In this document: positions 4,670 to 49,262 of the stretch, one piece after another | Position numbering within the stretch: position 1 is the stretch's first letter | Layout of the letters: every line of letters begins with the position of its first letter | Assembly (NCBI GenBank): GCA_027493775.1 | Contig: JAOSKE010000003.1 | Coordinates: 618,845 to 682,844 of the forward strand | Length of the DNA: 64,000 nucleotides | Direction: 5' to 3' | Source: Kiritimatiellia bacterium | Lineage (GTDB): Bacteria; Verrucomicrobiota; Kiritimatiellia; CAIVKH01 | Made by a program: the position numbers and the translations under genes | The notes under the pieces: model-generated | Database searches by the model: none | What the model saw: only the letters and a program-made list of their open reading frames with translations | What the model was told of the DNA's origin: nothing

Positions 4670-5684
4670 AGCATCCGCTCAAAGTCCTCGCGCTATTCGA
4701 TACGACTGGGCCGGTGGCGCCGGACAAGGATTTATCGGCGGAGCTGCAAACGCTGGATTGGAAAACCGAGGCGCATGTTCTCGCCGCGCTGAAAGAGCTG
4801 GGTCACGAAACGCAGTATATCCCGATCTTCGACGACCTCGCGCCGCTTCGCCAAAGAATCGCGACCTTCCGGCCCGACATCGTCTTTAACCTCGCCGACC
4901 AGTTTCGGAACAACCGCGCGTTCGATCAGAACATCGTTTCTCTTTTGGAAATGGAGGGCGTTCCCTTCACCGGCTGCGGCTCAGTTCCGCTGACGCTGTG
5001 CAAGCACAAGGGCGTATCAAAAAAATCCTCGCCTATCGCCGCATCCATGTGCCGGACTTCGAGCTGATTCCGCGGGGCCGCAAAAAAATTACCGCGCGCG
5101 GCCTGAAATTTCCGCTCCTAGCCAAACCGCTCAAGGAAGAAGCCTCCCTCGGCATCGCGCAGGCATCGCTCGTGCAAAATATCGAGCAGCTCACCGAGCG
5201 CGTCCGATTTATCCACGAAAAATTCGACAACGACGTGATCGCGGAAGAATACATTGACGGTCGCGAACTGTACGTCAGCCTTCTGGGAACCACGCGCCTG
5301 CAAATGTTCCCGATCCGGGAGCTGGTCTTCGGCGATGTCCCACCGGACAAGCCGAAGATCGCCACCTACAAGGCAAAGTGGGACGACGAATACCGGCATC
5401 GCTGGGGACTCGAAAATAAATTTCCGACCGACCTGGATCCGCTGATCGTCCGTAAGATCGAACACACGTGCAAACGAATCTACCGGTTGCTGATGATTGA
5501 CGGCTACGCGCGCCTGGACCTCCGCCTCGCCCCGTCCGGCGAAATTTATTTCCTCGAAGCCAATCCCAATCCCATGCTCGCCGCAGATGAAGATTTCGCC
5601 CAGTCCGCAGCCAAAGCCGACATCTCCTTTCCCCAACTGATCCAGCGCATCATCCGTCTCGGACTCAGTACAAATCGCGAATAA
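4666..5684 (+). CDS. ATP-grasp enzyme, D-Ala-D-Ala ligase/RimK-like. Frameshift at the A7 run 5019-5025.
   Basis: N-domain DIVFNLADQF...GSVPLTLCKHKGVSKK continues as ILAYRRIHVPDFELIP after a 1-nt shift. The ATP-grasp C-domain motifs ELYVSLLG and YFLEANPNP are present. Start overlaps the upstream peptidase stop (ATGA). Confidence 0.7.
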
Positions 5685-31094: not shown

Positions 31095-32630
31095 TATTTG
31101 CCTCCATCCGCAGCGGGGTTGAACGGCTTGAAAATACCACCAAGCCCGGAAGCATCATCACTGCTCAGTACCGTTTCGATTTGCGGCGCGATCTTCTCGT
31201 AAAAAACGTAACGCGCATAATTCTGCCCCGTCCCAAACGCCTGCACGCGACTCCGAATTACCGCCGCCTCGGCCTCATTGTTCAGCTTGATCACATCGCG
31301 ATCGGCACTCGCTCTGGACAACAGCGCCGCCGCCTGCGACTTCGCGGCCTCCGCTCCAAGTTTAGCCACCTCAAGTTCGCGATTCGCCGCGATGACCTGG
31401 ACGTCCTGCCCCTGCTGGGCAAGAAGCACGGCGCGCTTCTGGACCCGTCTCCGCGTCAACCCGTTCCTTGCTCTGCTGCGCAAGCATCTCCTGTTTCACC
31501 AACTCGGCCTGAGACTTCGCCTGCTCCGTCTGCTGGTCGAGTTTAATTGCATTTTGCACCGCAACCTCGCGGTCGCGGATGATACTCGCGATTTGATCGG
31601 GCGTCTGAATATTGCGGATCAATACCGAACGAATCGCCACGCCCCAATCCGCGCTCTTATCCTTCAAATGCGCCTCCAGACTATTCTGAAACTGCTGACG
31701 CGTTTCGCCCACAATAAAGTTAATCGCCGGATGCTTGCTGCCTTCGATACGACTGAACCCGCGAGCGCGCGGAAGAATGACCTTCTTGACCACATCCCCC
31801 ATATCGCCGACGCGATGCGTGATAAGCGCCGCGTTATCGCGCGTAATAGCAAATTCGAGCGTACCCTCGACGAGCACGGTGAACCCGTCCATGGTCAGGA
31901 AGCTGATCGCGTCATCGCCACTGAGTTCGAAACGCTGACTTTGCAACGTCACCTCTGCGACACTCACAATGTACGGATTGAGGTAGTACGTGCCCGGATC
32001 GAGTGTTCCGCTGATCACCCCTTTCATATTCTCGCCCACCAAAAAGGTATTCGTGGCGTCCGCCGGCAAATCGCCGTTCAGAACGTCCCCACCCGTCAGA
32101 TGTGTAACCACCCCCACGCTACCCGGCTTGATCGTAATCGCATCGAACAGATCAACGCGATACGCATAAGGATTAACGCGATGTTTGCCCGGCCTTAAAA
32201 CCTCTTCGAGGATGCCCTTAAATCCCTCGGGCGCGAGAATCTCGCCCGGCGGCAAATCCTTTCCGTACAACCGCGTCAGCACGCCCAGTTTGCCTGCGGG
32301 AATATCCGTAATTTTTGAAATGTGCCAACCCCACGTGTACGGATTTTTGAAATAGCGTCCCTCCGCAAGCACCTCGAGTTGAATTCCTCGCTGACTCGGC
32401 TCCGTCGCAATAATCTCGCCCGACGGCAACGTATCGCCCGTTTTATGAATTAAAATTGCGATTTGATCCGACCGCGGCTCAATCCGGCAATAAAACCAGA
32501 AAAAGATCGGCAGAAACAGAAACAGCGCGATCACAATCACCGGCATCAGCGCGCCCCCCTGAAACACCCCCACCCCGCGAGCGCTCCGAGGCGGCAACTG
32601 CGGAGGCATATTTTGTTGGCCAACAGTCAT
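31094..32630 (-). CDS. SPFH/band-7 domain protein, paralog of the downstream gene. Frameshift near 31450.
   Basis: Same architecture as 29382-31094. Its stop overlaps the downstream start (TAATG). RBS ggaggg before ATG 32630. The C-terminal 129-aa ORF continues the coiled coil. Confidence 0.75.
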
Positions 32631-32928: not shown

Positions 32929-33528
32929 TTACACCATATGAGCGCGAATGAAATTGCCGAGCGTAATGCGGTGAACTTTCAGATGGCGAGCAGCACGGGT
33001 ATAGGAGAACCCTCGCTTGAGTAGACGAGCGATTTCCTCCTCCCGACCAGTAAGTTTTACACGAGCACTTTTGCGTCCTTTGGGACGGCCGAGCGTCACA
33101 CCCTCTGCGCGTCTACGGGCAAGAGCCTCTTTAGTTCGTTGGGAAACAAGGTTGCGTTCGATTTCTGCCGTGAGCGCGAACGCGAATGCCAAGACTTTGC
33201 TACTGATATCAGCCCCAAGGCGATAGTTATCCTTGATGGTCCAAACCTGTACCTCTCGTTTTAGGCACTGGTTAAGGATATCCATAATCATTAAAAGCGA
33301 GCGTCCAAGTCGAGATAGTTCGGCGCAAATTAAGACATCGCCCTTTTGCAAACTCGCCAGAAGTTTGCCGAGTTTGCGTTTTTCTGGTTCCTTGCTGCCG
33401 GAAATAGTCTCCTCAAGCCAAATACCCACAGCGATGTTTTGCCGGTTACAGAAGCAATTAATTTCGTAGCGCTGGTTTTCAACGGTCTGTTTATCGGTAC
33501 TCACACGGATATAGCCATAAACCATCAT
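32929..33528 (-). CDS. Serine recombinase, resolvase/invertase family (DNA invertase)
   Basis: N-terminal catalytic domain YIRVSTDKQ with a Ser nucleophile. C-terminal HTH. 199 aa, typical of Hin/Gin/Pin invertases. Confidence 0.9.
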   Translation of the reverse strand: MMVYGYIRVSTDKQTVENQRYEINCFCNRQNIAVGIWLEETISGSKEPEKRKLGKLLASLQKGDVLICAELSRLGRSLLMIMDILNQCLKREVQVWTIKDNYRLGADISSKVLAFAFALTAEIERNLVSQRTKEALARRRAEGVTLGRPKGRKSARVKLTGREEEIARLLKRGFSYTRAARHLKVHRITLGNFIRAHMV

Positions 33529-33582
33529 GCTGCTCCTTTAATTATTTAAGTGAACAGCAAGATAGTGCAGTTTAGCAAAAAG

Positions 33583-33606
33583 GAGCCTTTTTGTTCGACA
33601 GAATGC
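33583..33606. repeat. Inverted repeat IR-1, left copy: 24 bp, perfect match to 35383-35406 on the opposite strand
   Basis: gagcctttttgttcgacagaatgc versus the reverse complement of gcattctgtcgaacaaaaaggctc. Confidence 0.9.
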
Positions 33607-33839
33607 TATCACTTGCACCTTCCCCGCCGATGGTTCCAGCTGGACTATCCTAAACCCCATCGAGCTGAGCATTAAACGCAAGATCGACATGATCGGCATC
33701 CCGCTGAAAGATTGGGATATCTCCATTAACTACGGCATTAAAACAGGCTTCAACGATGCCTTCATCATCGACGAGGCCAAGCGCAATGAAATCCTCGCTG
33801 GCTGCAAGACCGACGACGAGCGCAAGCGCACTGTCGAAC

Positions 33840-33894
33840 TAATACGACCCATTCTTCGCGGCCGGGACATCAAACGGTACGCGTATAGTTGGGC
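33840..33894. repeat. Inverted repeat IR-2, left copy: 55 bp, 5 mismatches versus 35095-35149
   Basis: taatacgacccattcttcgcggccgggacatcaaacggtacgcgtatagttgggc versus the reverse complement of 35095-35149. Encodes LIRPILRGRDIKRYAYSWA in both cassettes. Confidence 0.9.
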
Positions 33895-34409
33895 GGGGCT
33901 ATATCTCATCGCCACGCATAATGGAATTCCCGAAAAAGGCATTCCGAGGGTCGAAATCACAAAATACCCAGCCGTTAAGAAACACCTCGATTTCCATTGG
34001 CCCAAGATCAAAGCCAGAGCCGATCAAGGAGACACCCCTTATAATCTTCGTAGCTGCGCTTATATGGACGATTTTTCTAAACCGAAAATCGTGTGGGGAA
34101 ATTTGGCTTTGGCGGCACAGTTCTCAGCGGCACCCGCTGGCATGTTCATTAATGCGCCGTGTCCGATGATTGTCCCGTTTGACGGATATTTGCTTGCCAT
34201 CCTCAATTCAAAACTTGGCGATTGGTATATCCGACATCTAGGCGTAACACGCAACGGAGGCTATTTCGAATACAAACCGATGTTCATTGAACAACTGCCC
34301 GTTCCAGAAACGCAATCAAATACTGCCGAAAGGCTCTCGATATTAGCCAAAGATCCTACTGTAGAGGGCCAAGCCGAAATCGATCAGATCGTATTTGAAC
34401 TTTTCCACC

Positions 34410-37400
34410 TTACCCGTGCGGAAATCGACTGCTTAGAAACTCAGTCTCTTCGCGGTTAAGCCCGTAGTAATTAGCAATTTGTACATTTATCTTGCGTTGC
34501 CCTTCAGTGGTTGTTTTGCTCAATTCAGCGCGAATAATTTCAGTAATAGCCCCTTGCTTTTCGAGCGGCTGAATTGGTACGGGCAAGAGTTCGACATGTT
34601 GCCGCAACCAGCGCCAGCCGGTTTCATCAAGGCGGTTGCAAATCATGTCGAGATAGAAGAGGAGAGCCTTGCTGTTTAGAAACGCGAGGAGCCATTCATA
34701 CCCGACGCAATTTTTCGTTACTTCTCCCATTGTTAGAATGTAGCCTGTGTTTCCCACAAAATGACGGTCCCCGTTGAAGGTGAAAGCATTACCAGTCCGT
34801 GCCAGTTCCGCCCACACGATTTTCGGTTTAGAAAAATCGTCCCAATAATCTATCTGGTCTTGGGTCTCGAACCATTGATTGCCAGTTTTTTTACGCGACT
34901 TGTCCAAATTCTTTTCATTTACCGAAAGACCATGCGCAAGTATATGCGCTTTAACTGATTGTTTTTCCGCCGCTGTAAGTGTTTGCCCGGTTTGCCGTAA
35001 CTTCGGATAGAATCCGTACAGAAACTTTTTTACAGCGGGGTATTTGTCGATATCAACGTGCAACGCCGGGAATGTTCCTATAACATATAACTCAGCCCAG
35101 CTGTACGCATACCGTTTGATGTCCCTGCCGCGAAGAATCGGTCGTATTAATTTGGCAGTACGGTTATGCTCGTCAGCATCCATACAATTGCCAAGGATTT
35201 CATTGCGTTTTTCCTCGTCAATAATAAACGCATCGTTGTATCCAGTGAGAATACCACGGTAGATTTTTACATCCCAATTTTTTAGTGGGACTCCTTTCGC
35301 CTCTATCTTGCGTTTGATTGCTTGCTCAAGCGGGGTGAGAATCACCCAACTCGCGCCATCAGCAGGAAATGCACAAGGAGTTGCATTCTGTCGAACAAAA
35401 AGGCTCAAATTATCGCAGCTGGCATTGGTGGCGGTGACGGCGTGAGTTTCTGTGTTTTTTGCGCCGTTTGTGCTGTTGTTTTTCTCATAAAGCAGAATGT
35501 TGGTATCGACGGTGGCGGACGCAAATATTTTCTGACCCGCAAAATCAATGAGGGTTTTGGGTCGAGTATTAGCAGCAAGAAACTTGCGAAGAGACGCGCC
35601 GTAACCGGTCCGCATCCATTTGTTCGAAGTAATGAAACACAAGTATCCATTATTCTGCAGTAACTGCCACGCGCGTTCGTAAAAAAGTGTGTAGATATCG
35701 CCAGTACGCTCAAAAGTCTGAAAACCGAGGTCTTTGTAGAGGCTTGCCAGTCCACCTCGTTTGCTCTGGAGCTGGACATAAGGCGGATTGCCGATCACGA
35801 TATCGAAACCTTTTCCGAGCGAACTTCCGAACATCCAATGAGGATCAAAGAAGTCAGAAGATGCCTGCGGATCGAAAGGATCCCAAGTAGCGATGTGTTC
35901 GGCTTTCTTGGATGAGCCGAGGCTTTCGGCAAGCAACCTGCTGAGTTTTTTGCGTAGGTCTTTGATCTTGCGTTGCAGGGCAAGTTTCTGGTCTCGGCGC
36001 TGGATACCGAAATGGCTGTGGTATAGATCGTCGATTTCTGATTCGATCTTATAGATCTCGGGATTCACGAGTGCCAGCTGGTTCATCTTCGGCAGACCGA
36101 TGAGCGTATTGGCGACAACAAACTTGGTTTCCAGATTGGGCAGTGGGCGAATGCCGTGGTTTTGCTTCTTATTCCGATTGGTCTTTTGATCGCAGACGAG
36201 GGAGATAAAAAAGCGGAGCTTCGATATCTGGATGGCGATGGGCTGGATGTCCACACCGAAGAGACAGTTTTCGATGAGGTAGAGCTTACGACCGTAGTCG
36301 TCCTCGTTGTCGGCGAAGTCCCGCTCGATGGCTTCGATGGCAGCTTCTCGCGCGGAGGAATCGGGAATCTTCGCGGCGGCGGCGATCTGGAGTTGCTTCC
36401 AGCGCGCGTTGTCCGGGGTCGAGTTTGTGGATGACAAACACAAGTTTGTGCAGCATCCCCATCGGGAAGGCTCCGGAGCCACAGGCGGGATCGAGAATCT
36501 TACAGGTGTGGATGGCATCGAGCAGGGCAGCGATTTCGCGCTCATAAAACGGGTGTTCGCGCTCGGTGTAGGCGAAGAGGATGTCGAGGCCAGCCCGTGC
36601 GTCCTTTTCCGCCAAGCCGCACCCCGCCAACGCACCGACAAGGTGGGCCTTGAGCGATTCGTCCACCATGTATTCGACGATGGGGCGCGGGGTGTAGAAA
36701 GAGCCGGTTTGCTTGCGAGCGGTGCTCTTGGTTTCCTCGTTATAGGAGGCGAGCAGATTCTCGAAGACCTTGCCGAGCAATTCGGGATCGAGGGCGATTT
36801 CCTGATCGATCGGGGTATTCTCGACAATGGTAAATTTGTAACGGTTTAGAATAGGGATCAGGCCGGTGACTTTTTCCGCCCTACGCTGTCTGTCGTCATA
36901 GATGTCGGAAAGGTCTGCCGTTTCGCCGCTGTCGAAAAAAAGGCGGTCGGGAACGTGGGGGCGTTTGCTGGCATTGCGGGAGAAGCCGTCGAGGTAGAGT
37001 TTTTTGTCGGTACTTTCCTCGGTGCGGTCGAGACATTCAAAAAGCCCGCCGTTGAGAAAAGGAATGTCCGCAAAGAGAGCGATGGCCTCGTCAGGCGAGC
37101 AAGCGAAGAGCTTTTCATAGCGATAGAGGTTGTTGATGTCGTACGTAGTTCTGTTCTTCGCGAAGCCTTCGTCCATGGCGAAAACGCGATAAGGCTTCCC
37201 GTTACTGTCCTTGCCCATACGCTGATTTAGCGTGGCGAAGAAAAGGTTTTGTAGAATGGCCAGGTAGTAGCTGGAACAGGTCTCGCTTTCAGGATCGAAT
37301 CCCTTGAGTATTTTGGCAAGGTCGGTGGGATGGAAAAGTTTCTCCGGGATAAGATTCTTTTCCTTGAGGAACCAGCAGAAAATAAGCCGGGTAAGCAGAC

Positions 37401-38187
37401 GAATAAGGCCCGTGGCGCGGCGCTTTTCATCATCTGGCTCCAAGTCGGCGGGAAACTCAACTTGCGGGAGTGCCCAGAAATACCAGTTGGCCAGCTCACG
37501 GTAAAAACGCTCATTAAGCAGTTCGACGTTAAAAATCTGCTCCCAAGCGGCGTGTAAGGTGTCGAAGTCGGTGATGAGCAGTTTCTTCGGATGGACGAGA
37601 TTAGGCAGCGCCAGGGAATCGAGAATGTCGAGGTGGCCGCGGTGGGGTTGGGCGAAGTTGATATCGCGTATGATGGTGGCCTTTTCGAGGACATCTTTGC
37701 TCTCGTCGTTTTTGTTTCGGCGGCGATTGATGACGGCAATGGTGAGTCGGCTCTGGTGCTTGAAGATCACCATGACGGGCATGGGGAAAAGACGATTGAT
37801 CTGTCGGGCGATGGCGGAGAATTTACCTCGGGCGTATTCGCCACCATTTAGCTCGATGGCGACGAAGACGTAGGATTTGAGCAGACCGCGTTGAACGGAG
37901 TCGTCGGTGAACAGACTCAACTCGCGGCTGAGCTCCTGATCGGTAAGCTGGAAAAGAAGATCAGCGGTCTTCCATTCATCGAAAAGGGCTTTTTTCTCGT
38001 CAAAGGTGTGGCCGGAGCCGAAGAGATCGAGAAATGCCTGCGGCGAGGAGCCGGCACCGGCAATCGACCTCTTGCTCCCGTAGCCCAGCCTGTTTAAGAG
38101 CGCCGTGGCGGCTTTCGCCAATGGTTGGGCGCCAAATTCGGCAAGCGCCTTGACGATGGCGTGTTTCGTGTCGTGAACAGTAGGCAT
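34410..38187 (-). CDS. Type IIG restriction-modification enzyme (MmeI/PglX-like fused endonuclease-N6-adenine methyltransferase-TRD). Frameshift at the G4 run near 36416.
   Basis: MTase motif I DPACGSGAF and motif IV NPPY. The C-terminal specificity domain contains IR-1 and IR-2. The N-terminal 633-aa ORF and C-terminal 805-aa ORF join at ...VFVIHKLDP|DNARWKQLQ. Confidence 0.8.
35095..35149. repeat. Inverted repeat IR-2, right copy, inside the expressed Type IIG gene
   Basis: See IR-2 left copy. Confidence 0.9.
35383..35406. repeat. Inverted repeat IR-1, right copy, inside the expressed Type IIG gene
   Basis: See IR-1 left copy. Confidence 0.9.
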
Positions 38188-38189
38188 GA

Positions 38190-39065
38190 CTAGGCTTTCT
38201 TCTTCCGCAGTTTCCTGGCGCTCAACGGCGTGGCCTTCTTCATGCCCTGCGAAAGGCCCAGATAGTTCTCCGAAGAGATGACCTTGCGGCCGCTCTTCTT
38301 CTCGAGTTCGCGGCGGGCGTTGCCGGCCACCGCGCCGCCGTCCTGGGCGGCGGTCTCGTTTTCTGGGAAACCCTGGGCGTCGCGGGTGCGGGTGATCTCA
38401 GTGGTGGCGGCTTCGCCGAGCATCGAGAAGATCAACTCCAGGGCGGTCATGTGGTCGCGCAGGTTCTGGCGGGCCAGTCCCTTGAGTTCGGCATACTCGG
38501 AAGGCGTCAGGCCGAAGGCGGCCTTTGAGATTTCCGCGGTGAGGATGGCGTATTCGCGCTGTTCCTTGACGCCCCGCCTCTTCCATTCGTCGGTTAGTTC
38601 GTCGCGGATGGCGATGGAGCGCATCCGCTTTTCGATCCAATCGTCGGAGTAGCCCTTGGCCTTATAGAGGGCTCGGGTCCGTTTGGTGGCGAGTTCGGGG
38701 TCTTCGATCTCCTGGATGCGCTCATAGCCGACCTTGGCGAGCCACCGCTTGAACGGCTCGGCTTTGGGGCTGGGGATGGATTGGATGATCCGAAACAGGC
38801 CTTCCGCATTGGCGCAGTTAAGATTTTGTGGACCGCCAGCCGTCTGGATCGAAAGGGGGTGGACAATTTGTCCATACCCTTTGGCCAGCTCGGGATCGCG
38901 GCGGCGAACCTTGTTCAGGTAATCGGTTGGATCGGCCGCGTCGGTCAGCGCGGCAACCACATCCACTACGACAAACCACCATTCGTTGTTGTGGATGGCG
39001 CGGCGGATTTCTTTGCGATGGAACAGCGCAATGCGTGTTTCAGGATTGGGTGTAATGTCTGGCAT
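38190..39065 (-). CDS. dinD: DinD-like DNA-damage-inducible protein with Bro-N domain
   Basis: Bro-N motif KEIRRAIHNNEWWFVVVDVVAALT and DinD-like central region. 3 nt downstream of the helicase gene. Confidence 0.7.
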   Translation of the reverse strand: MPDITPNPETRIALFHRKEIRRAIHNNEWWFVVVDVVAALTDAADPTDYLNKVRRRDPELAKGYGQIVHPLSIQTAGGPQNLNCANAEGLFRIIQSIPSPKAEPFKRWLAKVGYERIQEIEDPELATKRTRALYKAKGYSDDWIEKRMRSIAIRDELTDEWKRRGVKEQREYAILTAEISKAAFGLTPSEYAELKGLARQNLRDHMTALELIFSMLGEAATTEITRTRDAQGFPENETAAQDGGAVAGNARRELEKKSGRKVISSENYLGLSQGMKKATPLSARKLRKKKA

Positions 39066-39067
39066 GG

Positions 39068-42000
39068 TCAGGATTTCTCCGGGGCTTTGATGACGAGCCA
39101 GGTGACGAGGTCGAAGTCGTCGCCGGCGGAGGTCGGCGATTCGGCCGCCGACGGCAACACGGCGTTACGACCGGCCTGGAGCGCAGACGCTGCGCGTTTT
39201 CGGAAGGTGTGCTCGATGGAGGCCAGCGCCTTCTTAAGCAGGCTGTCGTAGTGGCTCATGTCCGTACCGTCTTTCGTGTGCTTGTCGAACAGGTTGCAGA
39301 GCTCATCGAAAGCGGTCGTTTCGCCAGCTGCCAGATCACGAAGCAACAGCATGGACTCCTTCGGCTGGGCGAAACTGAAGCGAACCATGCCGTCGTCATG
39401 GACATAGACGATGTAGTACGGGACGAGCGGATTCAGATTGGTCGTATCCGCCGGTTTATCTGACTCCCTTTTCTCGACCGCCGCTCGATGTCGCAGGCAG
39501 AACAACACGCCCGGACGGACCCTCGCAAACAAGTCTTCCTTCGTCGGAACCACGGCATAAAGCCCCTCTCCCGCCTCCTCAAGGGCAGCTCGGTTGGTTT
39601 CCAAATACTGCAACAGATCGAGCCTAAACTCATCCAGCGAAAAGTCTGTCAGTGAGACAGAATCATCAAGATCACTCAGGTCGAGAATCTCGTCCTTGAG
39701 CCGCTTGAGCTGGCGATCCCGGAACAGGAGGTCTTCCTTAATAAGCTCCTGTAGTTGATCAGGATCGAGCAGATTATCGCTTTGAGTAGCCGACAAATCC
39801 ACCAGTGCCATACGTGCTTCCACGCGCATTTTTATTCCGAGGTACTGATCCAAATCGGATACAGGCCAAAAATTTACGAGTTGGACAGAGTCGTTACGGG
39901 AGCCGATTCGATCAATACGGCCAAAGCGCTGGATGATGCGCACCGGGTTCCAATGGATGTCATAGTTAATCAGAAGGTCACAATCCTGGAGGTTCTGTCC
40001 TTCAGAAATACAATCGGTTGCAATCAGTAGATCAATTTCCTCGTTCTGGTTGGGAAATCTCTGCATTTGCTCAGCTCTGCGCTTCGCGCGGGGCGCAAAA
40101 TTAGTCAAAATATCATCGTAATCTGTTGCTCCCAGACTGGCGGCATTGCCCCCGTCTCCACACACGAGGCCCACGTGGATATTGAGTTCGCTCCTCGCCC
40201 ACGGCTCAAGGTGTTCATGTAAATAACGGGCTGTATCGGCAAAGGCAGTGAAAACAAGAACCTTCTTATTTTTCTCTCCATCGCGATTGGTTGAAGGTTC
40301 GCGAACTTTCGTCTCTATAAATTCTTTTAATTTCGCGAGTTTTCCATCGCGTTTGACTGTAACGGCTTCCGTTTTTTCGAGTAGATATTGCAGCTGTGTT
40401 CGGTCATTGCGCACGGCCTTGAGCCATTCCGGCAACTTTAGATGTTTAAGATGTATGCGCCGATGGCCACCGATTGTGAACTCCTCTTCATCAAAATCAG
40501 GGTCTTCAAAAAGTTCCGGAGTCAGTTGCTCGTAGCTCATCTGCGAGTTGTCGTTGGAATGCGCCTCAAAAAGGGTGATTTTTTCTTCGATCTCACCAAT
40601 TTTTTTGATCGTTCGCTTTAGCGTCCACCGGAAGGAGTCCACGGAACTCTCCAGCCGCTTAAGGAGGTTCACCTTCATCATGGCAATGAGGATGCGTTCG
40701 CGCCCTTCCTGTGTAAACGCGCCTAGTATCTTTGCCTCATAGCGCTCCCGTACACTGGGAGGTAAATCGTCGCGCAAGTAGTGAGTGGGGTGATACAAGG
40801 CGAGGCGAAGAGCGTTAATTTCACGGTCCAATTGCTCGAATGACAGAAAGTGTTGTTGCAAGTCTATCGGCGCATGAACGGCCCTCGGCGGTGGGCGTTG
40901 CGGAAAGCCACCCAACTCTTTCATTTCGTCCTTGTAGTATCTGGCTACCTGCTTGCGTGAACGAGCGATACTGAGGCCATCGAGTAGTCTAAAAAAGTCG
41001 CCACCTATGCCCGAAAGTAAATCGCGCGTCTTGCGATCTTCCGGAGGCCTTTTTGCCCATGCGGTGAATTGCATCTGCGCCTGGCGCGAGGTTTCTTTTA
41101 CCGATGCAATATCAAGCTTCTCGGCAAAGGCGGTATCTGCGAAATCGTCGCGAGCGACGTCACCTCCGGCGATAAACGAAATCTGGTTGCGAAGATCCGC
41201 CAACTGATTATTCACAGGTGTCGCAGAAAGCAGCAGAACTTTGGTATGTACGCCGGCTGCAATAATGTCCTCCATTAGACGCTGGTAGCGGCTGCGACGG
41301 GGCGCGGCGTCCCCCTCACGCTGCGTTGCAAGCTTGTTATTGCGGAAGTTGTGAGACTCATCAATTACGACCAAGTCGTAGCCGCCCCAATTCAGAGTGT
41401 CCAAATATAAACCATTGACCTCCCCTTTCTCGCGAGAAAGGTCCGTATGATGAAGAACATCGTATCGAAACTTGTCATCAGCAAACGGGTTGAGTGAGCT
41501 GGGGCTGCGATAGATAGTCCAGTTCCGGCCGAGCTTTTTTGGACAGAGCACTAAAACTCGCTCATTCCGCAATTCGAAATATTTTATTACGGCTAGAGCA
41601 GTGTATGTCTTCCCCAGACCAACGCTGTCCGCCAAAATACAGCCGCTGTAATCGAGGATTTTATTGATAGCAGCCTTTGCGCCGTCTTTCTGAAATGAAA
41701 AAAGGGTCTTCCAGATATGGGTGTCTGGGAGCGCTGTTTGCCGTAAACTCTGATCGAGATCGCGGGCAACAGCCAAGTAATCGCGAAAGAGATGAAACAG
41801 CGTGAGGTAGTAGATGAACTGTGGGGGGTGGTTGGCGTAAAGCTGACCGAGATAATCCAGAACTTCCTGTTTTACGTCTTGAACAAGCGCATCATCATTC
41901 CAAAGTTCATAAAACCATCTTTTTAAGTCTTGGCGATCACGGTCACTATCAACTACGAGGTTTAACTCGATATTGCTGTTGGCGTGCGTGAGACCGAGCT

Positions 42001-42443
42001 CCATGCACGGTGAAATTTGAACTGCCGAGCATCGCATGTTCCACACCGCCTTTGGCGATGTGGTACATTTTGCCGTGCAGCAGTTGGGCGTGGCGCACTG
42101 ATCGGATATTCACTTTTTGCTCAATCCAGTTTGCGCAATCTCGAGCCACCCTTTTTTGCTCCAACTTTTGGCTCAGTTGTAGGCCCCTCTCATTGAGGAC
42201 AAACGCCTTCGTTGCGGTTTTATCTGGATCGAGAGACTTGATGAATCGCGGCTCACCGAAAAGGAAATCGAGGTGCCCTATCTGGTCAAGATGCTCACGC
42301 AATGCATCGTAGGCGTAAATCGTAAAATAGGCCGAGACAACCGAGAGACTAGAGCCTGATTTTATTTTCTCTCGCAAGAATTCCGCAACAATGCCGCGAT
42401 GATAGTTGTCGCGAATACCAGTTATGGGAAGCGATACCGTCAT
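39068..42443 (-). CDS. PLD-family (HKD) nuclease domain fused to SNF2-family helicase. Frameshift near 42002.
   Basis: N-terminal HxK...GSSNFT motif (LLHGKMYHI...GSSNFT). SNF2 motifs DSVGLGKT, DESHNFRN, LLSATPVNN, and helicase-C QRFGRIDRIGS. Both ORFs join at ...NFTVHG|ELGLTHANS. Confidence 0.8.
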
Positions 42444-43759: not shown

Positions 43760-43936
43760 GGGGGCGGAAGGCTGAAACCCGAGGAATGGTTGGTGGGTTG
43801 ATGAGGGCGGATTGCCCACAAGGGATACGGAAGACGCAAAAAATACGTCCTCCGCCACCTCGTGCGGCAGGAGCGAGGGACCGTGGATACGCAATTAGAC
43901 CTTGCCCGGAATGGGCGGGGAAGTGAACATAGGTGT

Positions 43937-44940
43937 ATGGCTAAAGAACAGGATGTGGCGGCGGTCCCGCTGGAATGGGTCGGGCCGGTGATGTTTTCGG
44001 GGCCGGAGATTTCAGGCGAGGCGCTGCTGCCGTTGGCGACCTACGAGTCGCCGTTGTGGCCCTCGGTAAATCGGGGAGCGCGGGTGACGCGCGAGATCGG
44101 TGGGCTTTCTGTTGTGGTGGTTTCGGAATGTATGACGCGCTCAATCGCGGTGGAGGCGGAGAGCGCTGCCGCAGTCGCAGAAGTGGCACGGGCGTTGCCG
44201 GGGCTGATGGAGGATATGCGGAGAGTGACCGCGACGACGAGTCGCTTTGCACAACTTCAAGAGGTGCATACGCAAATCGTCGGACGGGTGTTGTTTATCC
44301 GATTCTCGTTCACGACGGGAGATGCGTCGGGTCATAATATGGCGACAAAGGCTGCGGATGCGCTGATGGCGTGGCTATTGGAAACGTACCCGCGCCTGGA
44401 TTACGTTTCGATTTCCGGGAACGTTTGCACGGATAAAAAAGTTTCGGCCGTGAACGGAATTTTGGGCCGCGGCAAATATGTCATAGCCGAGGCAGTCATC
44501 CCTGCGGCGACGTGCGAAAAGCGCTTGCGGACGACGGCGGCGAAGATCGCGGATTTGAATCTCAAAAAAATTGGATCGGCACATCGCTTGCCGGCGGCGT
44601 TCGTTCCGCAAATGCGCACTTTGCAAATATGCTCCTGGCGTTCTACCTCGCGACGGGGCAGGACGCAGCGAATATCATTGAAGGCTCGCAGGGGTTCGTC
44701 CACACCGAGGCGCGTGAGGACGGTTCCCTCTATTTTTCGTGTACGCTGCCGAACCTGATTATGGGGTCGGTCGGCAACGGGAAGGGTCTCGATTTTGTGC
44801 AACGCAATTTGGAGCGGCTCGGATGCGCGGAGGAACGAGCGGCGGGCGCAAATGCGCGGCGACTCGCAGCGCTTTGCGCGGCGGCGGTATGGTGTGGGGA
44901 GCTTTCTTTGCTAGCCGCGCAGACAAATCCGGGGAGCTGA
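43937..44940 (+). CDS. mvaA: 3-hydroxy-3-methylglutaryl-CoA reductase (class I catalytic domain). Frameshift at the A7 run 44564-44570.
   Basis: Motifs VPLEWVGPV, TTGDASGHNM (DAMGMNM-like), and GTSLAGGVRSANAHFANMLLAFYLATGQDAAN in the second frame. Confidence 0.8.
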
Positions 44941-44998
44941 TGCGGGCGCATGTAAAATTAGAACGGAAATCCCGGAGGTAATTGGGTATAGTGCCGAC

Positions 44999-46150
44999 AT
45001 GACGAAACCAGGCCCCAAACGTTCGTTGCGCGGCGGACAGCGGTATCCGCGCACGTTGCGTCCGACATCGGCTGCCGAACCAAAGAAGGCGCTGGCCGTT
45101 CGCGATACGACAAACCAGCGGAAGCTGGAGCACATTAAGATTATTAGTGAGGATGAGGGGACGGATCGCCGCAAATACTATTTTGATCAAATCCGACTTC
45201 GCCATCGGGCGCTACCGGAGATCAACTTGGAGGAAGTGGAAACCTCCGTCGAGTTTATGGGCAAGCGGCTTGCGTGTCCGTTGCTGATCTCCGGGATGAC
45301 GGGCGGAGACGATCCGGCGATGGTGCGGATCAATCAAAACCTCGCGGAGGCGGCGGAGCTTCGGCAGGTCGCAATGAGCGTCGGTTCACAGCGCGTGTTC
45401 TTCACCAACCCGAAGGCGCGGGCGAGTTTTGCACTGCGCGAGATTGCTTCGACCACTCTGCTGTTCGCAAATCTCGGCGCGGTACAACTGAACAAGGGCT
45501 TTGGAATCGAAGAGTGTCGCGACGCGGTGAACATGCTCGACGCAGATGCGCTGTATCTCCATCTGAATCCACTGCAAGAAGCGGTGCAGCCGGAGGGCGA
45601 CACGCAGTTTGGCGGGCTGATCGAAAAAATCGGTGGAATTTCATGGGCGTTGAATAAGCCGGTAATTTTGAAGGAGGTCGGCGCGGGAATTTCTCGCGAG
45701 GATGTGAAGTTGGCGATTCCGCGCGGGATTCGCTTTATTGATGTCGCGGGAAGCGGTGGCACGTCGTGGAGCAGAATCGAGCATCATCGCCGGGCGGACG
45801 ACGACAACGACGACGCGGGTCTGCTCTTTCAAGACTGGGGCATCCCCACCCCACGCGCACTTTGGGAGCTTCGCGATTTGCGTTCGGAAGTAACGTTAAT
45901 TGCATCGGGTGGAATCCGCTCGGGTATTGATGTGGCGAAGGCGCTGATTCTCGGCGCATCGCTTTGCGGGCTGGCCGCTCCATTTTTGAAGCCCGCGCAG
46001 GAGTCTGCGGACGCGGTGATGGCAGTGATTGACCGCCTGCGTCACGAATTGAGAATCGCAATGTTTCTGCTGGGTGTTCGGCGCGTGGCCGATCTGATCG
46101 GAAACACAAAGTTGCTGCTCGATCTCCCCTTCGCTGAGAACGCGCCATGA
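44999..46150 (+). CDS. fni: Isopentenyl-diphosphate delta-isomerase, type 2 (FMN-dependent)
   Basis: IDI-2 motifs (HIKIISEDEG..., LISGMTGG, GIRFIDVAGSGGTSW, ASGGIRSG). Confidence 0.85.
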   Translation: MTKPGPKRSLRGGQRYPRTLRPTSAAEPKKALAVRDTTNQRKLEHIKIISEDEGTDRRKYYFDQIRLRHRALPEINLEEVETSVEFMGKRLACPLLISGMTGGDDPAMVRINQNLAEAAELRQVAMSVGSQRVFFTNPKARASFALREIASTTLLFANLGAVQLNKGFGIEECRDAVNMLDADALYLHLNPLQEAVQPEGDTQFGGLIEKIGGISWALNKPVILKEVGAGISREDVKLAIPRGIRFIDVAGSGGTSWSRIEHHRRADDDNDDAGLLFQDWGIPTPRALWELRDLRSEVTLIASGGIRSGIDVAKALILGASLCGLAAPFLKPAQESADAVMAVIDRLRHELRIAMFLLGVRRVADLIGNTKLLLDLPFAENAP

Positions 46151-47316
46151 ACGTCGGTATAGACGCGATTCATTTCTATTCGTCGAACTACTTTATGGAC
46201 CTCCGCACGCTCGCGGGCGTGCGGAATGTGGACCCCGACAAGTACACGGTCGGCATCGGCCAAGAGAAAATGGCCATTCCTCCGCCGGACGAGGACATCA
46301 TCACGATGGCCGCAAGCGCGGCGCATCCGCTGATCGAGCGCGACGGGAAGGACAACATTGAGCTGTTGTTATTTGCCACGGAGTCGGGGATTGACCAATC
46401 GAAGGCGGGCGGAATTTTCGTACACGGCCTGTTGGACCTGCCCGCGCGTTGCCGTGTCGTGGAATTGAAAGAGGCCTGCTACAGCGGCACCGCCGCGTTG
46501 CAACTGGCCTGTTCCGCAGTGGCGCGCAATCCGAAGACGCGCGCGTTGGTCATCGCTGCAGATGTTGCGCGGTATGAACTGGCGAGTCCGGGCGAGCCGA
46601 CGCAGGGCTGCGGCGCGGTGGCCATGCTGGTGACCGCGAACCCGCGCATCCTGGCGATTGACCCCGAGGTTGGACTCTTCACGTCTGACGTGATGGATTT
46701 CTGGCGGCCAAACTATCGCGATCAGGCGGTGGTGGACGGCAAGTATTCGACGCGCGTTTATTTGCAGGCGCTACAAGACTGCTGGAAACAGTATTGCGAA
46801 GAATCGGGCCGAGGCTTCTCTGACATCCATCGCTTTTGCTACCACCTCCCCTTCACGCGCATCGCGGAAAAGGCGCACGAGCGACTGGCGCGGGCGAGTG
46901 GCGTGACGGTGACGCCGGAGCAGATCGCACAGCAAGTGGGCATCTCGCTGGATTACAACAAAATCATGGGGAACAGCTATGCCGCATCGCTCTACGTTGG
47001 CTTATGCTGCTTGTTGGACAACGAGATGGAAGACCTTTCGGCAAAGCGCATCGGCCTTTTCAGCTACGGTTCGGGGTGCGTTGCGGAATACTTCAGCGGC
47101 GTAGTCCAGTCGGGTTATCGCGACCGCCTTTTGACGGACTCGCACCACGTATTGCTGGAAAATCGAACGGAACTGACATATCGGCAATACGAGGATATCT
47201 ACAATCTAGCCTTTCCAACGGATGGCGGAGGGCATACCTTCTCTCGGTATCGCACGGGGGGCTATCGCCTTGCAGGGGTGAAGGACCACAAGCGACTTTA
47301 CGAAGCAGTATTATGA
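46147..47316 (+). CDS. mvaS: HMG-CoA synthase
   Basis: Thiolase-fold with catalytic Cys EACYSGT and bacterial MvaS-like length. ATGA overlaps with neighbours. Confidence 0.9.
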   Translation: MNVGIDAIHFYSSNYFMDLRTLAGVRNVDPDKYTVGIGQEKMAIPPPDEDIITMAASAAHPLIERDGKDNIELLLFATESGIDQSKAGGIFVHGLLDLPARCRVVELKEACYSGTAALQLACSAVARNPKTRALVIAADVARYELASPGEPTQGCGAVAMLVTANPRILAIDPEVGLFTSDVMDFWRPNYRDQAVVDGKYSTRVYLQALQDCWKQYCEESGRGFSDIHRFCYHLPFTRIAEKAHERLARASGVTVTPEQIAQQVGISLDYNKIMGNSYAASLYVGLCCLLDNEMEDLSAKRIGLFSYGSGCVAEYFSGVVQSGYRDRLLTDSHHVLLENRTELTYRQYEDIYNLAFPTDGGGHTFSRYRTGGYRLAGVKDHKRLYEAVL

Positions 47317-48317
47317 TCGCAATTGCGCCGGGAAAATTGATTTTGAGTGGGGAGCACGCGGTGGTCTATGGCCGCCCCGCGCTCGCAATGGCTATTGATC
47401 GCTGTGCGCAGTCCATCATCGCGCCCGGACAGGCTGACCTGGTTTCGTTCAATCTGCTCGACTTGAAGGAGCACGATTCCTTCACCCTTCGCGCACTCGG
47501 CGAGATGCACTCGCGCCTGCTGCGGAACTACCAACTCTTCCTCAACGGCGAACTCGGCATCCGCGACGTGCTGCACAAACCAATCGAGCTGTTTGAATTC
47601 GCGTTCATCACATTGCTTGACGGCTTGCGCCTCAAGTTCGGTGGCGGCATTGATATTCAAACGCAATCCAACATTCCCATCGGCTGTGGAATGGGTTCGT
47701 CAGCGGCGACGGTGTTGAGCATGCTCCGCGCCATCGGCCACTACTTCCGTGTGGAGTTTCGGCCCGATTGGTTTCTGAAATACAGCATGGATGCAGAGAA
47801 GCTGCAACACGGTTTCCCCAGCGGCGTGGATTCTTATATTTCGCTGCACGGCGGCTGCGCATTGTTTCGCAACGGCGAGGCCGAATCGGTTCCCCTCCCC
47901 CGCCTTCGCCTCTACTTGGTGAACACGGGGACACCGACCGCGACAACGGGCGAATGCGTTGTTGAGGTGAAGAACAATTTTGCGAACGATCCGATTTGGA
48001 ACGACTTCGAGGCTGTGACGCTGGAACTTGAAAAGGCGCTGCGCGCGAACGACCACGAGACCTTCCAACAAATGATCGGAGCGAATCAGCGCCTTCTTGA
48101 ACGTATCGGCGTCGTGCCTGAAAAAGTGCAGCATTTTGCCAAAATGATTGAGGCGACGGGTGGCGCGGCGAAAATTTGCGGCGCGGGTTCCGTGCTCGGC
48201 GATAACGGCGGGCTGCTCCTCGTCATTGCGGAAAACCCGCCCGTTGAGCTTTGCCGCGAATACGGCTACGAGCTGCTTACCGTCCGCGGCGACCCCCTCG
48301 GCGCGCGAATCGTCTAA
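47313..48317 (+). CDS. mvk: Mevalonate kinase (GHMP kinase)
   Basis: APGKLILSGEHAVVYG and GHMP motif GCGMGSSAA. Confidence 0.85.
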   Translation: MIAIAPGKLILSGEHAVVYGRPALAMAIDRCAQSIIAPGQADLVSFNLLDLKEHDSFTLRALGEMHSRLLRNYQLFLNGELGIRDVLHKPIELFEFAFITLLDGLRLKFGGGIDIQTQSNIPIGCGMGSSAATVLSMLRAIGHYFRVEFRPDWFLKYSMDAEKLQHGFPSGVDSYISLHGGCALFRNGEAESVPLPRLRLYLVNTGTPTATTGECVVEVKNNFANDPIWNDFEAVTLELEKALRANDHETFQQMIGANQRLLERIGVVPEKVQHFAKMIEATGGAAKICGAGSVLGDNGGLLLVIAENPPVELCREYGYELLTVRGDPLGARIV

Positions 48318-48332
48318 CGCGCTCGGGCGACA

Positions 48333-49262
48333 ATGCCTTCCGATCCGATCATCGCATCCGCGCCCGGCAGTCTGATGTTGCTTGGCGAACACGCTGTCTT
48401 GCACGGACGCCGCGCATTGGTTGCGGCGATCAATCAACGCCTGCGCGTGACGCTGATTCCGCGAACCGATTCCAAGGTTGAAATAGAATCCGCTCTCGCA
48501 CACCACGCGACAACCTTGGAACAACTCACTCCGCACCCGCAACTGCGCTTCATCATGGAAGCGGTAACCCGCGCACGGGCCAATTTTTCGTCCGGATTCA
48601 CACTGCAAATTGCGTCCGATTTTTCGCACACCATCGGCTTCGGCTCCTCCGCAGCAGTGACCGTGGCAACGGTTGCGGTGTTACAAAAATACTACGCGAA
48701 TAATTTTTATCTCGATGCGATTTGCGACGAAGCCATCGCAGTCATTCGCGCAGTTCAAGGTCGAGGCTCCGGCGCAGACGTCGCTGCGAGTACGTATGGC
48801 GGTGTCGTAGCCTATCGCGCCACCCCGCGCGAAGCGCTCAAACTCGACACACCTCTTACACTTTGCGCCGTGTACGCAGGATACAAGACCCCCACGCCCG
48901 AAGTAATTCGGCGCGTGGATGAGATGTGGAGCGGGAGGCAGGCGGCGCTCGCAATAATTTATGGCCAAATGGATACATGCAGCGCCGAAGGAATCGCCGC
49001 GTTGGAGAAAAACGACCACGCCGAGTTTGGGCGGGTACTAAATCGCGGCCAACGATTGATGGAAGAGTTGGGTGTGAATACGCCTGAGCTGGAACAAATC
49101 ATCCGCGCGCTACGCGCAGACGCTGGAATTTCCGGTGCAAAAATTTCGGGATCGGGAATGGGCGATTGCGCAATTGGATTAGGTGAACTGAAGAAGGCCC
49201 TTGAGGGTTTTGATCCGATTCAGATCAGGACATCGCCAAACGGCGTGAGTATAAGCCCATAA
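48333..49262 (+). CDS. GHMP kinase, probable phosphomevalonate kinase
   Basis: APGSLMLLGEHAVLHG; GFGSSAA; C-terminal SGSGMGDCAIGL, resembling PMK SGAGGGDCG. Confidence 0.65.
   Translation: MPSDPIIASAPGSLMLLGEHAVLHGRRALVAAINQRLRVTLIPRTDSKVEIESALAHHATTLEQLTPHPQLRFIMEAVTRARANFSSGFTLQIASDFSHTIGFGSSAAVTVATVAVLQKYYANNFYLDAICDEAIAVIRAVQGRGSGADVAASTYGGVVAYRATPREALKLDTPLTLCAVYAGYKTPTPEVIRRVDEMWSGRQAALAIIYGQMDTCSAEGIAALEKNDHAEFGRVLNRGQRLMEELGVNTPELEQIIRALRADAGISGAKISGSGMGDCAIGLGELKKALEGFDPIQIRTSPNGVSISP

Follow-up and report, generated by a model that had tools for sequence, protein, structure and literature searches.

Can a bacterium change the DNA specificity of a single-chain restriction–modification (RM) enzyme by inverting parts of the gene that encodes it? 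This question is raised by a locus in a 64,000-nucleotide stretch of contig JAOSKE010000003.1 (assembly GCA_027493775.1, positions 618,845–682,844) from the metagenome-assembled genome of an uncultured Kiritimatiellia bacterium, hereafter the window. In this locus, the gene for an Eco57I-type DNA methyltransferase with a C-terminal target-recognition domain (TRD) converges on a silent, start-less copy of its own TRD, and the silent copy lies beside the gene for a serine invertase. We consider it very likely that the locus is an active, invertase-driven specificity shufflon. Exchange at two pairs of inverted repeats (IR-1 and IR-2) is supported by natural recombinants in metagenomes, and exchange at a third pair (IR-3) is plausible.

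The methyltransferase/TRD gene (34410–38187, minus strand) and the silent cassette (33566–34459, plus strand) overlap convergently by 50 nucleotides (nt) at 34410–34459. The cassette frame runs open to its stop at 34459 and matches TaqI_C (1.4e-12); it has no start codon until an ATG at 33689, is stop-free over 297 codons and is a paralogue of residues ~958–1258 of the expressed protein. The invertase gene (32929–33528, minus strand; MCZ7593003.1), 37 nt from the cassette frame, encodes a small serine DNA invertase of the Mpi family with 199 amino acids (aa), or 198 aa as called from the second Met in public assemblies. Residues 3–144 match Pfam Resolvase (2.3e-34), the catalytic-serine motif YIRVSTDKQ is seen in the translation, and a weak C-terminal helix–turn–helix (HTH) match (Pfam HTH_23) covers residues 165–195. 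With 315.5 bits, the protein exceeds the cut-off (272) of the NCBIfam equivalog NF009949 ('master DNA invertase Mpi family'), and residues 2–198 are aligned to profile positions 1–197 of 203.

Three nested pairs of inverted repeats link the cassette to the gene. The arms of IR-1 (silent, 33583–33606; expressed, 35383–35406) are exact reverse complements over 24 of 24 nt, and the expressed arm encodes SLFVRQNA; 100 shuffles gave an expectation of no such match by chance. Those of IR-2 (silent, 33840–33894; expressed, 35095–35149) encode LIRPILRGRDIKRYAYSW and differ at 5 of 55 nt, within a longer repeat of 95 nt with 82% complementarity. IR-3 (silent, 34060–34097; expressed, 34811–34848) is 38 nt long and 95% complementary, of which 32 nt are exact (34066–34097 and 34811–34842), and again no match is expected by chance. 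The interval 33583–33904 is homologous to 35406–35085 with 72% identity overall; IR-1 and IR-2 are thus peaks of identity within paralogous coding sequence, and IR-3 is an island amid otherwise unalignable DNA. They are the sole strong inverted repeats spaced up to 6 kb apart in the whole window. One other pair within that spacing (720–750 and 4896–4926; 31 nt, 81% complementary) is weak.

We designated the stretches between the repeats as segments A, B and C, with copy 1 expressed in the window (A1, 35150–35382; B1, 34843–35139; C1, 34410–34810; minus strand) and copy 2 silent (A2, 33607–33839; B2, 33850–34065; C2, 34098–34459; plus strand). The two copies share 47 of 77 residues in A, 35 of 104 aligned positions in B and 32 of 132 in C, and B1 and B2 are unequal in length. 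When the segments were assembled in all eight A/B/C combinations, each gave an uninterrupted open reading frame (ORF) of 1218, 1231, 1245 or 1258 aa, a count that speaks for frame compatibility and not for the folding or DNA binding of the chimeras. A sequence-only reading of this DNA had already recorded the serine invertase, the start-less cassette, the perfect 24-bp IR-1, the 55-bp IR-2 at 91% identity and the 50-bp opposite-strand overlap of the TRD 3′ ends, all of which were reproduced here. It had counted two nested repeat pairs and up to four specificity alleles; with the third pair, eight in-frame alleles are possible.

If the segments are exchanged in nature, other arrangements of the same locus should exist. 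The invertase and the neighbouring Bro-N protein were found on ~45 Logan metagenome contigs of the same species that are 98.3–100% identical to the window; 20 of them were fetched, and their states were assigned from a map of diagnostic sites that differ between the arms. The arrangement of the window, with A1B1 expressed and A2B2 silent, is also that of contigs L002, L004 and L015. A silent A1B1, which implies an expressed A2B2, is present in L013, L014 and four similar places; in L014, the sequence of window 34811–35406 lies beside the invertase gene with 100% identity. A1B2 is expressed in L008–L010 and A2B1 in L006 and L007, and the silent A1B2 that matches the latter is found in L019. All four A/B states are therefore present and the displaced segment is found each time in the other slot, a reciprocity that is predicted by inversion and not by gene conversion.

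The positions at which these contigs change from one copy to the other are narrowly defined. Exchange at IR-1 occurred inside the 24-nt tract, as the flank type switches there in L005, L006 and L007 and in L013, L014 and L019. The IR-2 recombinants (L006 and L007, L008–L010 and L019) switch between diagnostic sites that flank the 10-nt sequence TAATACGACC (33840–33849 in the silent arm, 35140–35149 in the expressed arm). The flanks of the recombinant contigs are 99.4–100% identical to the window, and identical junctions were obtained from independent runs (SRR8427159/61, SRR34578577/80/81, SRR23375771, SRR29243421 and SRR6800325). Moreover, the ends of L005 and L018 fall exactly 30 nt (k − 1) in, after IR-1 plus 6 nt of A2, and L019 ends 30 nt past the start of the shared IR-2 tract. 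Because such an end marks a node that is reached from two flanks, these contigs imply that both junctions existed within one sample, on our assumption that the Logan assemblies use k = 31. These observations are direct evidence that, in natural populations, the expressed gene and the silent cassette have traded segments at IR-1 and IR-2, and they bear out, at these two sites, the earlier proposal of recombination between cassette and gene.

The same design is found in distant relatives. When one genome per species was scanned with a profile, at least 564 relatives in many phyla were returned, and 80 loci were kept. Nine of these (L026, L046, L048, L063, L078, L090, L093, L096 and L100) have an inverted TRD copy directly downstream, and one more (L049) has such a copy far upstream. 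An invertase 60–65% identical to that of the window accompanies six of the nine downstream cassettes, in Bacteroidales, Treponema and Elusimicrobiota; the design thus recurs in Bacteroidota, Spirochaetota and Elusimicrobiota. In the seven loci whose arms were compared in detail (L046, L063, L078, L090, L093, L096 and L100), identity between the arms peaks at the same three codon positions and in similar DNA (GAGCGATTTT..., CTTATACGACCGATT and GGACGATTTTTCTAAGCC...), the peaks reading GAGCGATTTTGT... at IR-1, CTTATACGACCGATTCT at IR-2 and GGA(C/G)GATTTTTCTAAGCCAAAAAT at IR-3. In every related shufflon locus, the IR-3 island occupies the same codons (DDFSKPKIVW). The arms of L100 are 41% identical, and its sole IR-2 island is ATACGACCGATT. 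In a contig from another organism (L101, 541–572, from the Joint Genome Institute (JGI)), the 32-mer of the window's IR-3 is present exactly, in a locus in which TRD segments A and B are only 70% identical to those of the window, a hint of either constraint on the DNA sequence itself or recent transfer.

A search with the TRD tail returned as best database matches hundreds of stand-alone TaqI_C-only ORFs of 296–340 aa (P0135–P0254, for example P0152 and P0167), which are annotated as 'class I SAM-dependent DNA methyltransferases'. The genomic context was checked for P0167 alone (L102, 9001–9921): it is a silent TRD cassette that lacks a methyltransferase domain, and in Bacteroides uniformis it is flanked by a resolvase, with 64% identity to the invertase of the window, and by a convergent 1252-aa Eco57I/TaqI_C enzyme. 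The methyltransferase name on these TaqI_C-only proteins is probably a systematic misannotation. Bacteroidales members of the family (L046, L049, L054, L057, L059, L076, L084, L095 and others) align only from query residue ~205–219; the N-terminal nuclease-like (DUF4391-like) domain is therefore either absent from them or separately encoded. In those loci, ~1.3 kb separates the helicase match from the methyltransferase match.

The ends of the repeat arms suggest where the strands might be cut. A perfect palindrome, CAAAAAGG-AG-CCTTTTTG, occupies 33576–33593 at the outer edge of the silent arm of IR-1. Identity between the arms begins 1 nt before its central AG, and the expressed arm of IR-1 shares only the inner half. 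The palindrome is a candidate crossover site at which cleavage would be centred on the dinucleotide AG. The three sites have a C(G/C)(A/T)TT element in common. In an alignment anchored on this element, the arms become identical from 3 nt upstream of it at both IR-1 and IR-3, and the exchange interval of IR-2 ends at it. Because these starts and this end align on the shared element, AG, AC and GA are the putative crossover dinucleotides, in sites that follow the pattern (A/T-rich)-KG-NN-C(G/C)-(A/T-rich). This pattern resembles that of hix and gix sites, in which identity between partner sites likewise starts at the core. Differing core dinucleotides would block out-of-register recombination between sites that are not partners.

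A natural deletion variant of the locus has its junction at the same palindromic IR-1 site. In L001 (13600–13730), L003, L011, L012 and L020 (runs SRR29564161, SRR29564163 and SRR29564175), the sequence of window 33584–35395 is missing, and the 8-nt direct repeat CCTTTTTG marks the join of window 35396 to 33583, the junction lying within AG+CCTTTTTG. This variant has neither TRD copy: a 942-aa methyltransferase is followed directly by the invertase. The deletion may be a product of the invertase acting on sites in the wrong orientation, or it may reflect replication slippage. A further divergence was seen at the start of L016 and L017 (positions 1–27 in each; SRR34578571 and SRR34578581), where the 27 nt upstream of the invertase gene (AAATCACACGGAAAAGCCGGAAGAACC) match nothing in the window. 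These nucleotides precede the invertase ribosome-binding site (~33547 onward in the window) and the contigs end there, which suggests another structural variant, an insertion or a rearrangement, beside the invertase.

On the basis of these data, we propose that expression is confined to the TRD joined to the methyltransferase, with the convergent, start-less copy of the last ~300 codons held alongside it, and that the Mpi-family invertase would recombine the three nested, in-frame site pairs IR-1, IR-2 and IR-3. Each inversion would swap all sequence distal to the site between the expressed and silent slots, such that segments A, B and C could combine into eight full-length enzymes. Specificity would change with the swapped segments, each enzyme being predicted to methylate a different DNA motif and, together with the helicase-nuclease encoded upstream or with its own nuclease-like domain, to restrict a different motif. 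The members of a clonal population would then differ in their susceptibility to phages and plasmids.

Several points weigh against this proposal, in addition to the limit on the eight-allele count given above. We infer, rather than observe, the catalytic role of the invertase, the change of methylation motif and the crossover dinucleotides. No same-species contig crosses IR-3, as all short-read contigs stop at its 32-nt exact repeat, which is longer than k − 1; a scan of JGI metagenomes with the IR-3 32-mer gave one match only, the contig from another organism; and a protein search with the TRD tail gave no same-species protein over IR-3, the best match being 60% identical. The use of IR-3 is accordingly put forward as plausible. 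The variants are seen in contigs, not in reads from a clonal culture, and could be fixed differences between co-occurring strains, and all of the IR-2 recombinant junctions could stem from a single historical inversion. Finally, the window's own copies of the methyltransferase and helicase genes are both frameshifted.

Four other explanations for the locus were weighed. The cassette could be a decaying duplicate of the TRD in which nothing inverts, the repeats being no more than conserved protein motifs (SLFVRQN, LIRPILRGRDIKRY and DDFSKPKIVW). The repeats do fall on the peptide motifs that the family conserves most strongly, and we estimate that a 24-nt exact run within 320 nt at a uniform 72% identity is not vanishingly rare (about one chance in ten). 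A decaying duplicate would nevertheless have to be reconciled with a cassette that is stop-free from end to end, with a 32-nt IR-3 in sequence that has no other detectable nucleotide homology and with the recurrence of the cassette-plus-invertase design across phyla, and it is contradicted by contigs with reciprocal exchanges exactly at IR-1 and IR-2; we give it almost no credence. Similarly, the variants might be de Bruijn graph misassemblies at repeats, given that all of the contigs are k-mer assemblies and that IR-3 does break them. At 24 nt, IR-1 is shorter than k − 1 = 30, as are the exact runs of IR-2 (≤16 nt), so that neither shared nodes nor chimeric paths arise there, and the same junctions were assembled from independent runs; misassembly is thus as remote an explanation as decay.

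A more serious alternative, although still an improbable one, is that the mosaics arose by RecA-dependent recombination or by exchange between strains, and that the invertase has another target. Tracts of 24 and 10 nt are, in our view, too short for efficient RecA recombination. The longer identical runs in IR-2 (16 and 12 nt) were not used, and reciprocal products are seen. Six of the nine cassette loci, as well as the separately found B. uniformis locus, have an adjacent invertase of the same clade, and arm identity starts at the same nucleotide (GAGC...) in distant relatives. In favour of this alternative, the invertase is linked to the exchanges by adjacency, which is no proof, since Mpi of Bacteroides fragilis acts on 13 distant regions (PMC4747536).

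It is also conceivable that the shufflon is a relic in this genome. The methyltransferase gene in the window is 3778 nt long, which is not a multiple of three, and an extra C at 36415–36418 (a +1 frameshift) divides it into two ORFs; the sequence-only reading had the gene at the right place and overlooked the frameshift. An extra A at 42000 likewise splits the helicase gene in two, and a natural lineage (L001, L003 and L020) has lost the whole invertible region. By contrast, the public contigs have an open methyltransferase frame and an intact helicase of 1124 aa. Over 23.8 kb, the window differs from the otherwise identical contigs L002 and L015 by nine single-base indels (at 25383, 25604, 27241, 29230, 31446, 36418, 42000, 44571 and 44935) and by no substitutions. 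One of the indels (44571) lies in the ORF of a housekeeping HMG-CoA reductase, which is truncated to 298 aa in the window as compared with 366 aa in the contigs; the SPFH gene is also shorter (426 versus 511 aa), probably owing to the indel at 31446. Because nine indels occur without a single substitution relative to identical metagenome contigs, faulty assembly almost certainly accounts for the frameshift at 36415–36418. The pattern resembles that of errors in a long-read consensus, and other ORFs in the window may be falsely split. We therefore treat the methyltransferase, of 1258 aa once the extra C is removed, and the helicase as intact in the organism, and regard a dead system as very unlikely.

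What kind of enzyme does the shufflon act on? The corrected protein matches Pfam Eco57I (7.1e-40), N6_Mtase and TaqI_C (4.1e-10), and its NPPY motif (N800-P801-P802-Y803) is invariant. PADLOC labels it REase_MTase_IIG (2.3e-122). Among solved structures, the family profile matches CamA (7lni; 5e-50, residues 783–1188), as well as BseCI, TaqI and BpuSI (7.5e-11), and it matches the structures of PglX and BrxX over the methyltransferase core only. The features of a gamma-class N6-adenine methyltransferase fused to a TRD are thus present (Eco57I, TaqI_C, NPPY and the CamA match), and the methyltransferase–TRD half appears, by profile comparison, to be closest to CamA, BseCI and TaqI. The N-terminal domain is nuclease-like in fold only, with N standing where lysine is usual, and its DUF4391 match is below threshold (27.6 bits versus a cut-off of 29.9).

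The enzyme had previously been called MmeI-like. Its MmeI_Mtase score (21.1 bits) is below the cut-off of 27, the other MmeI domains are unmatched, and MmeI is not among the matches of the family profile to the Protein Data Bank (PDB) at E ≤ 0.01. It is therefore not well described as a stand-alone MmeI-like Type IIG enzyme, and is better described as an Eco57I-type methyltransferase/TRD protein with a nuclease-like N-terminal domain that works beside an HKD–SNF2 helicase. Three other assignments were also rejected. The NCBIfam PglX model of type 1 BREX (bacteriophage exclusion) gave 19.1 bits against a cut-off of 500, and the neighbours are not BREX genes. [quoted passage not shown] A Type I hsdS shufflon does not fit a TRD that is fused to its methyltransferase in an island without hsdS or hsdR.

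The methyltransferase gene is part of a defence island (32929–42443) that comprises the invertase, the cassette, the methyltransferase/TRD gene, a Bro-N gene and a helicase gene. The helicase gene (39068–42443, minus strand) matches PADLOC 'HKD+Snf2' (7.7e-123) and Pfam SNF2-rel_dom and Helicase_C. Its phospholipase D (PLD) domain falls in a separate ORF (41949–42443) in the window, and the intact protein with PLDc_2, SNF2 and Helicase_C is encoded by L001, L002 and L004. An HKD–SNF2 helicase is found upstream of the methyltransferase in 66 of the 80 related loci. The earlier remark that the locus has no BREX or Type I partner genes was therefore true of those systems and misleading as to partners in general. 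Between the helicase and methyltransferase genes, with a gap of only 2 nt on each side, lies the gene for the Bro-N domain protein (38190–39065, minus strand; 291 aa; Pfam Bro-N, 2.2e-13), which matches the PADLOC candidate defence family PDC-S13 (1.9e-114). In view of these short gaps, the helicase, Bro-N and methyltransferase/TRD genes probably form one operon. A Bro-N homologue was detected in only 5 of the 80 related loci, and between helicase and methyltransferase in only 2, and the gene is therefore probably accessory.

Exact look-ups at the National Center for Biotechnology Information identified the window proteins as MCZ7592999 to MCZ7593011. The island is flanked on one side by the SPFH gene, frr (ribosome recycling factor) and pyrH (UMP kinase), and on the other by genes for a peptidase (M23), a GNAT protein and enzymes of the mevalonate pathway. 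The mevalonate cluster (43862–49262), which adjoins the island, encodes HMG-CoA reductase, an FMN-dependent dehydrogenase family protein, HMG-CoA synthase and two GHMP kinases. The G+C content is 47–49% in the invertase–cassette–TRD part (33000–36000), as compared with 52–56% in the constant part of the methyltransferase and 56–60% in the flanking housekeeping genes; the low value fits a foreign origin of the invertase–cassette–TRD module.

Switches of this kind were described in 2023 by Milman, Yelin and Kishony (Nucleic Acids Research; PMC9881135), who confirmed programmed inversions by long reads in 11 Type II RM loci; the earlier statement that such shuffling is rarely documented for Type IIG/PglX-like enzymes was overstated, and the novelty of the present switch is modest. 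Their loci include 'Cj0031 homologues', some solitary and some with adjacent coding sequences for phospholipase D and an SNF helicase (for example, Bacteroides ovatus CP083813.1, 5322008–5329826, and CP044495.1), and homologues of the B. ovatus locus that bear inverted repeats occur in three phyla. The same study reported a 16-fold enrichment of 'Eco57I restriction-modification methylase' among inversion targets and of 'Mpi family serine-type recombinase' among their neighbours, and its long-read-confirmed cases came from Actinobacteria, Bacteroidetes, Firmicutes and Proteobacteria. The locus in the window shares with this class a large single-chain Eco57I-type methyltransferase/TRD gene, an inverted partial paralogue joined to it by inverted repeats, a recombinase gene nearby and an adjacent PLD–SNF2 helicase. 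Its likeness to the B. ovatus locus is one of design, homology having been compared only with Bacteroidales family members from our own scan. In contrast to those cases, the host phylum here is Kiritimatiellota, a Bro-N gene sits between helicase and methyltransferase, and the evidence comes from metagenome contigs rather than long reads.

A close match in layout is the B. uniformis locus (L102–L104), which also has a convergent, start-less TaqI_C cassette of ~300 aa, an adjacent small serine invertase that is 64% identical, islands of arm identity at the same three codons and an IR-3 with the same 32-nt boundaries. It differs in that the enzyme has a DUF7149/DUF7814 N terminus and no helicase neighbour, in that the invertase and enzyme genes are on opposite strands (both are on the same strand in the window) and in its location on a mobilisable element with relaxase, primase and integrase genes. 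The pglX shufflon of type 1 BREX (Lacticaseibacillus rhamnosus NC_013198.1; PMC9881135) similarly combines nested inversions, a silent partial copy and an adjacent recombinase, but it is accompanied by BrxA/B/C, PglZ and BrxL, and its variable region lies mid-protein ahead of a constant C terminus, such that single inversions give truncated intermediates. Here, each inversion brings its own C terminus and stop, and no truncated intermediate results. A paper on BREX diversity from 2026 (PMC12839542) contained nothing relevant to the system in the window.

Type I hsdS shufflons, such as BF9343_1757-60 of B. fragilis with eight specificities and four inverted repeats (PMC7641763), resemble the present locus in their in-frame repeats between TRD modules, their single expression site with silent modules and their eight combinations. 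In those systems, specificity resides in a subunit distinct from HsdM and HsdR, the recombinases implicated are tyrosine recombinases, and two half-TRDs each read one half-site, whereas the TRD here belongs to the same chain as the methyltransferase and is divided into three pieces that can be exchanged. Finally, the invertase has the size (~200 aa) and C-terminal HTH of the Hin, Gin, Cin, Min and Mpi serine recombinases, and its putative sites (A-tract/GG, 2 nt, CC/T-tract) are like those of the Hin/Gin type. Those enzymes switch promoters or tail-fibre genes; here, coding sequence for an RM enzyme is switched and, unlike in Hin-type and Mpi systems, one enzyme would serve three site pairs with apparently different core dinucleotides.

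The most interesting remainder is the conserved three-site module and the model for its sites. A broader reading, which we hold as a tentative possibility, takes the invertase, together with the start-less copy of the TRD and the three sites in frame, as a self-contained, horizontally portable 'specificity-shuffling module' mounted on at least two RM chassis, namely the HKD–SNF2-partnered enzyme described here and the solitary DUF7149/DUF7814 enzyme on a mobilisable Bacteroides element. As parts of the same tentative reading, the sites would be kept at synonymous positions over phylum-level distances (for example, ATA-CGA-CC and GGA(C/G)GATTTTTCTAAGCC) and their pairs keyed by AG, AC and GA, and the deletion of 33584–35395 would be a rare wrong-orientation product of the invertase and an irreversible OFF state.

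Invertase-driven switching of specificity in single-chain RM enzymes is thus extended to Kiritimatiellota, a little-studied phylum of the Planctomycetes–Verrucomicrobia–Chlamydiae (PVC) group, with all four A/B states already visible in public metagenomes. Exchange intervals at the locus are precise, 24 nt at IR-1 and 10 nt at IR-2, and the locus also supplies a testable site model for an Mpi-family invertase that acts in coding sequence. Such loci also break short-read assemblies: many contigs of metagenome-assembled genomes (MAGs) in the family end inside the TRD, as in several Bacteroidales and Opitutales MAGs in which the match reaches the contig end within this domain. Long-read MAGs, in turn, fix one arbitrary isoform, and a locus of this kind would confound binning or strain typing that relies on methylation motifs.

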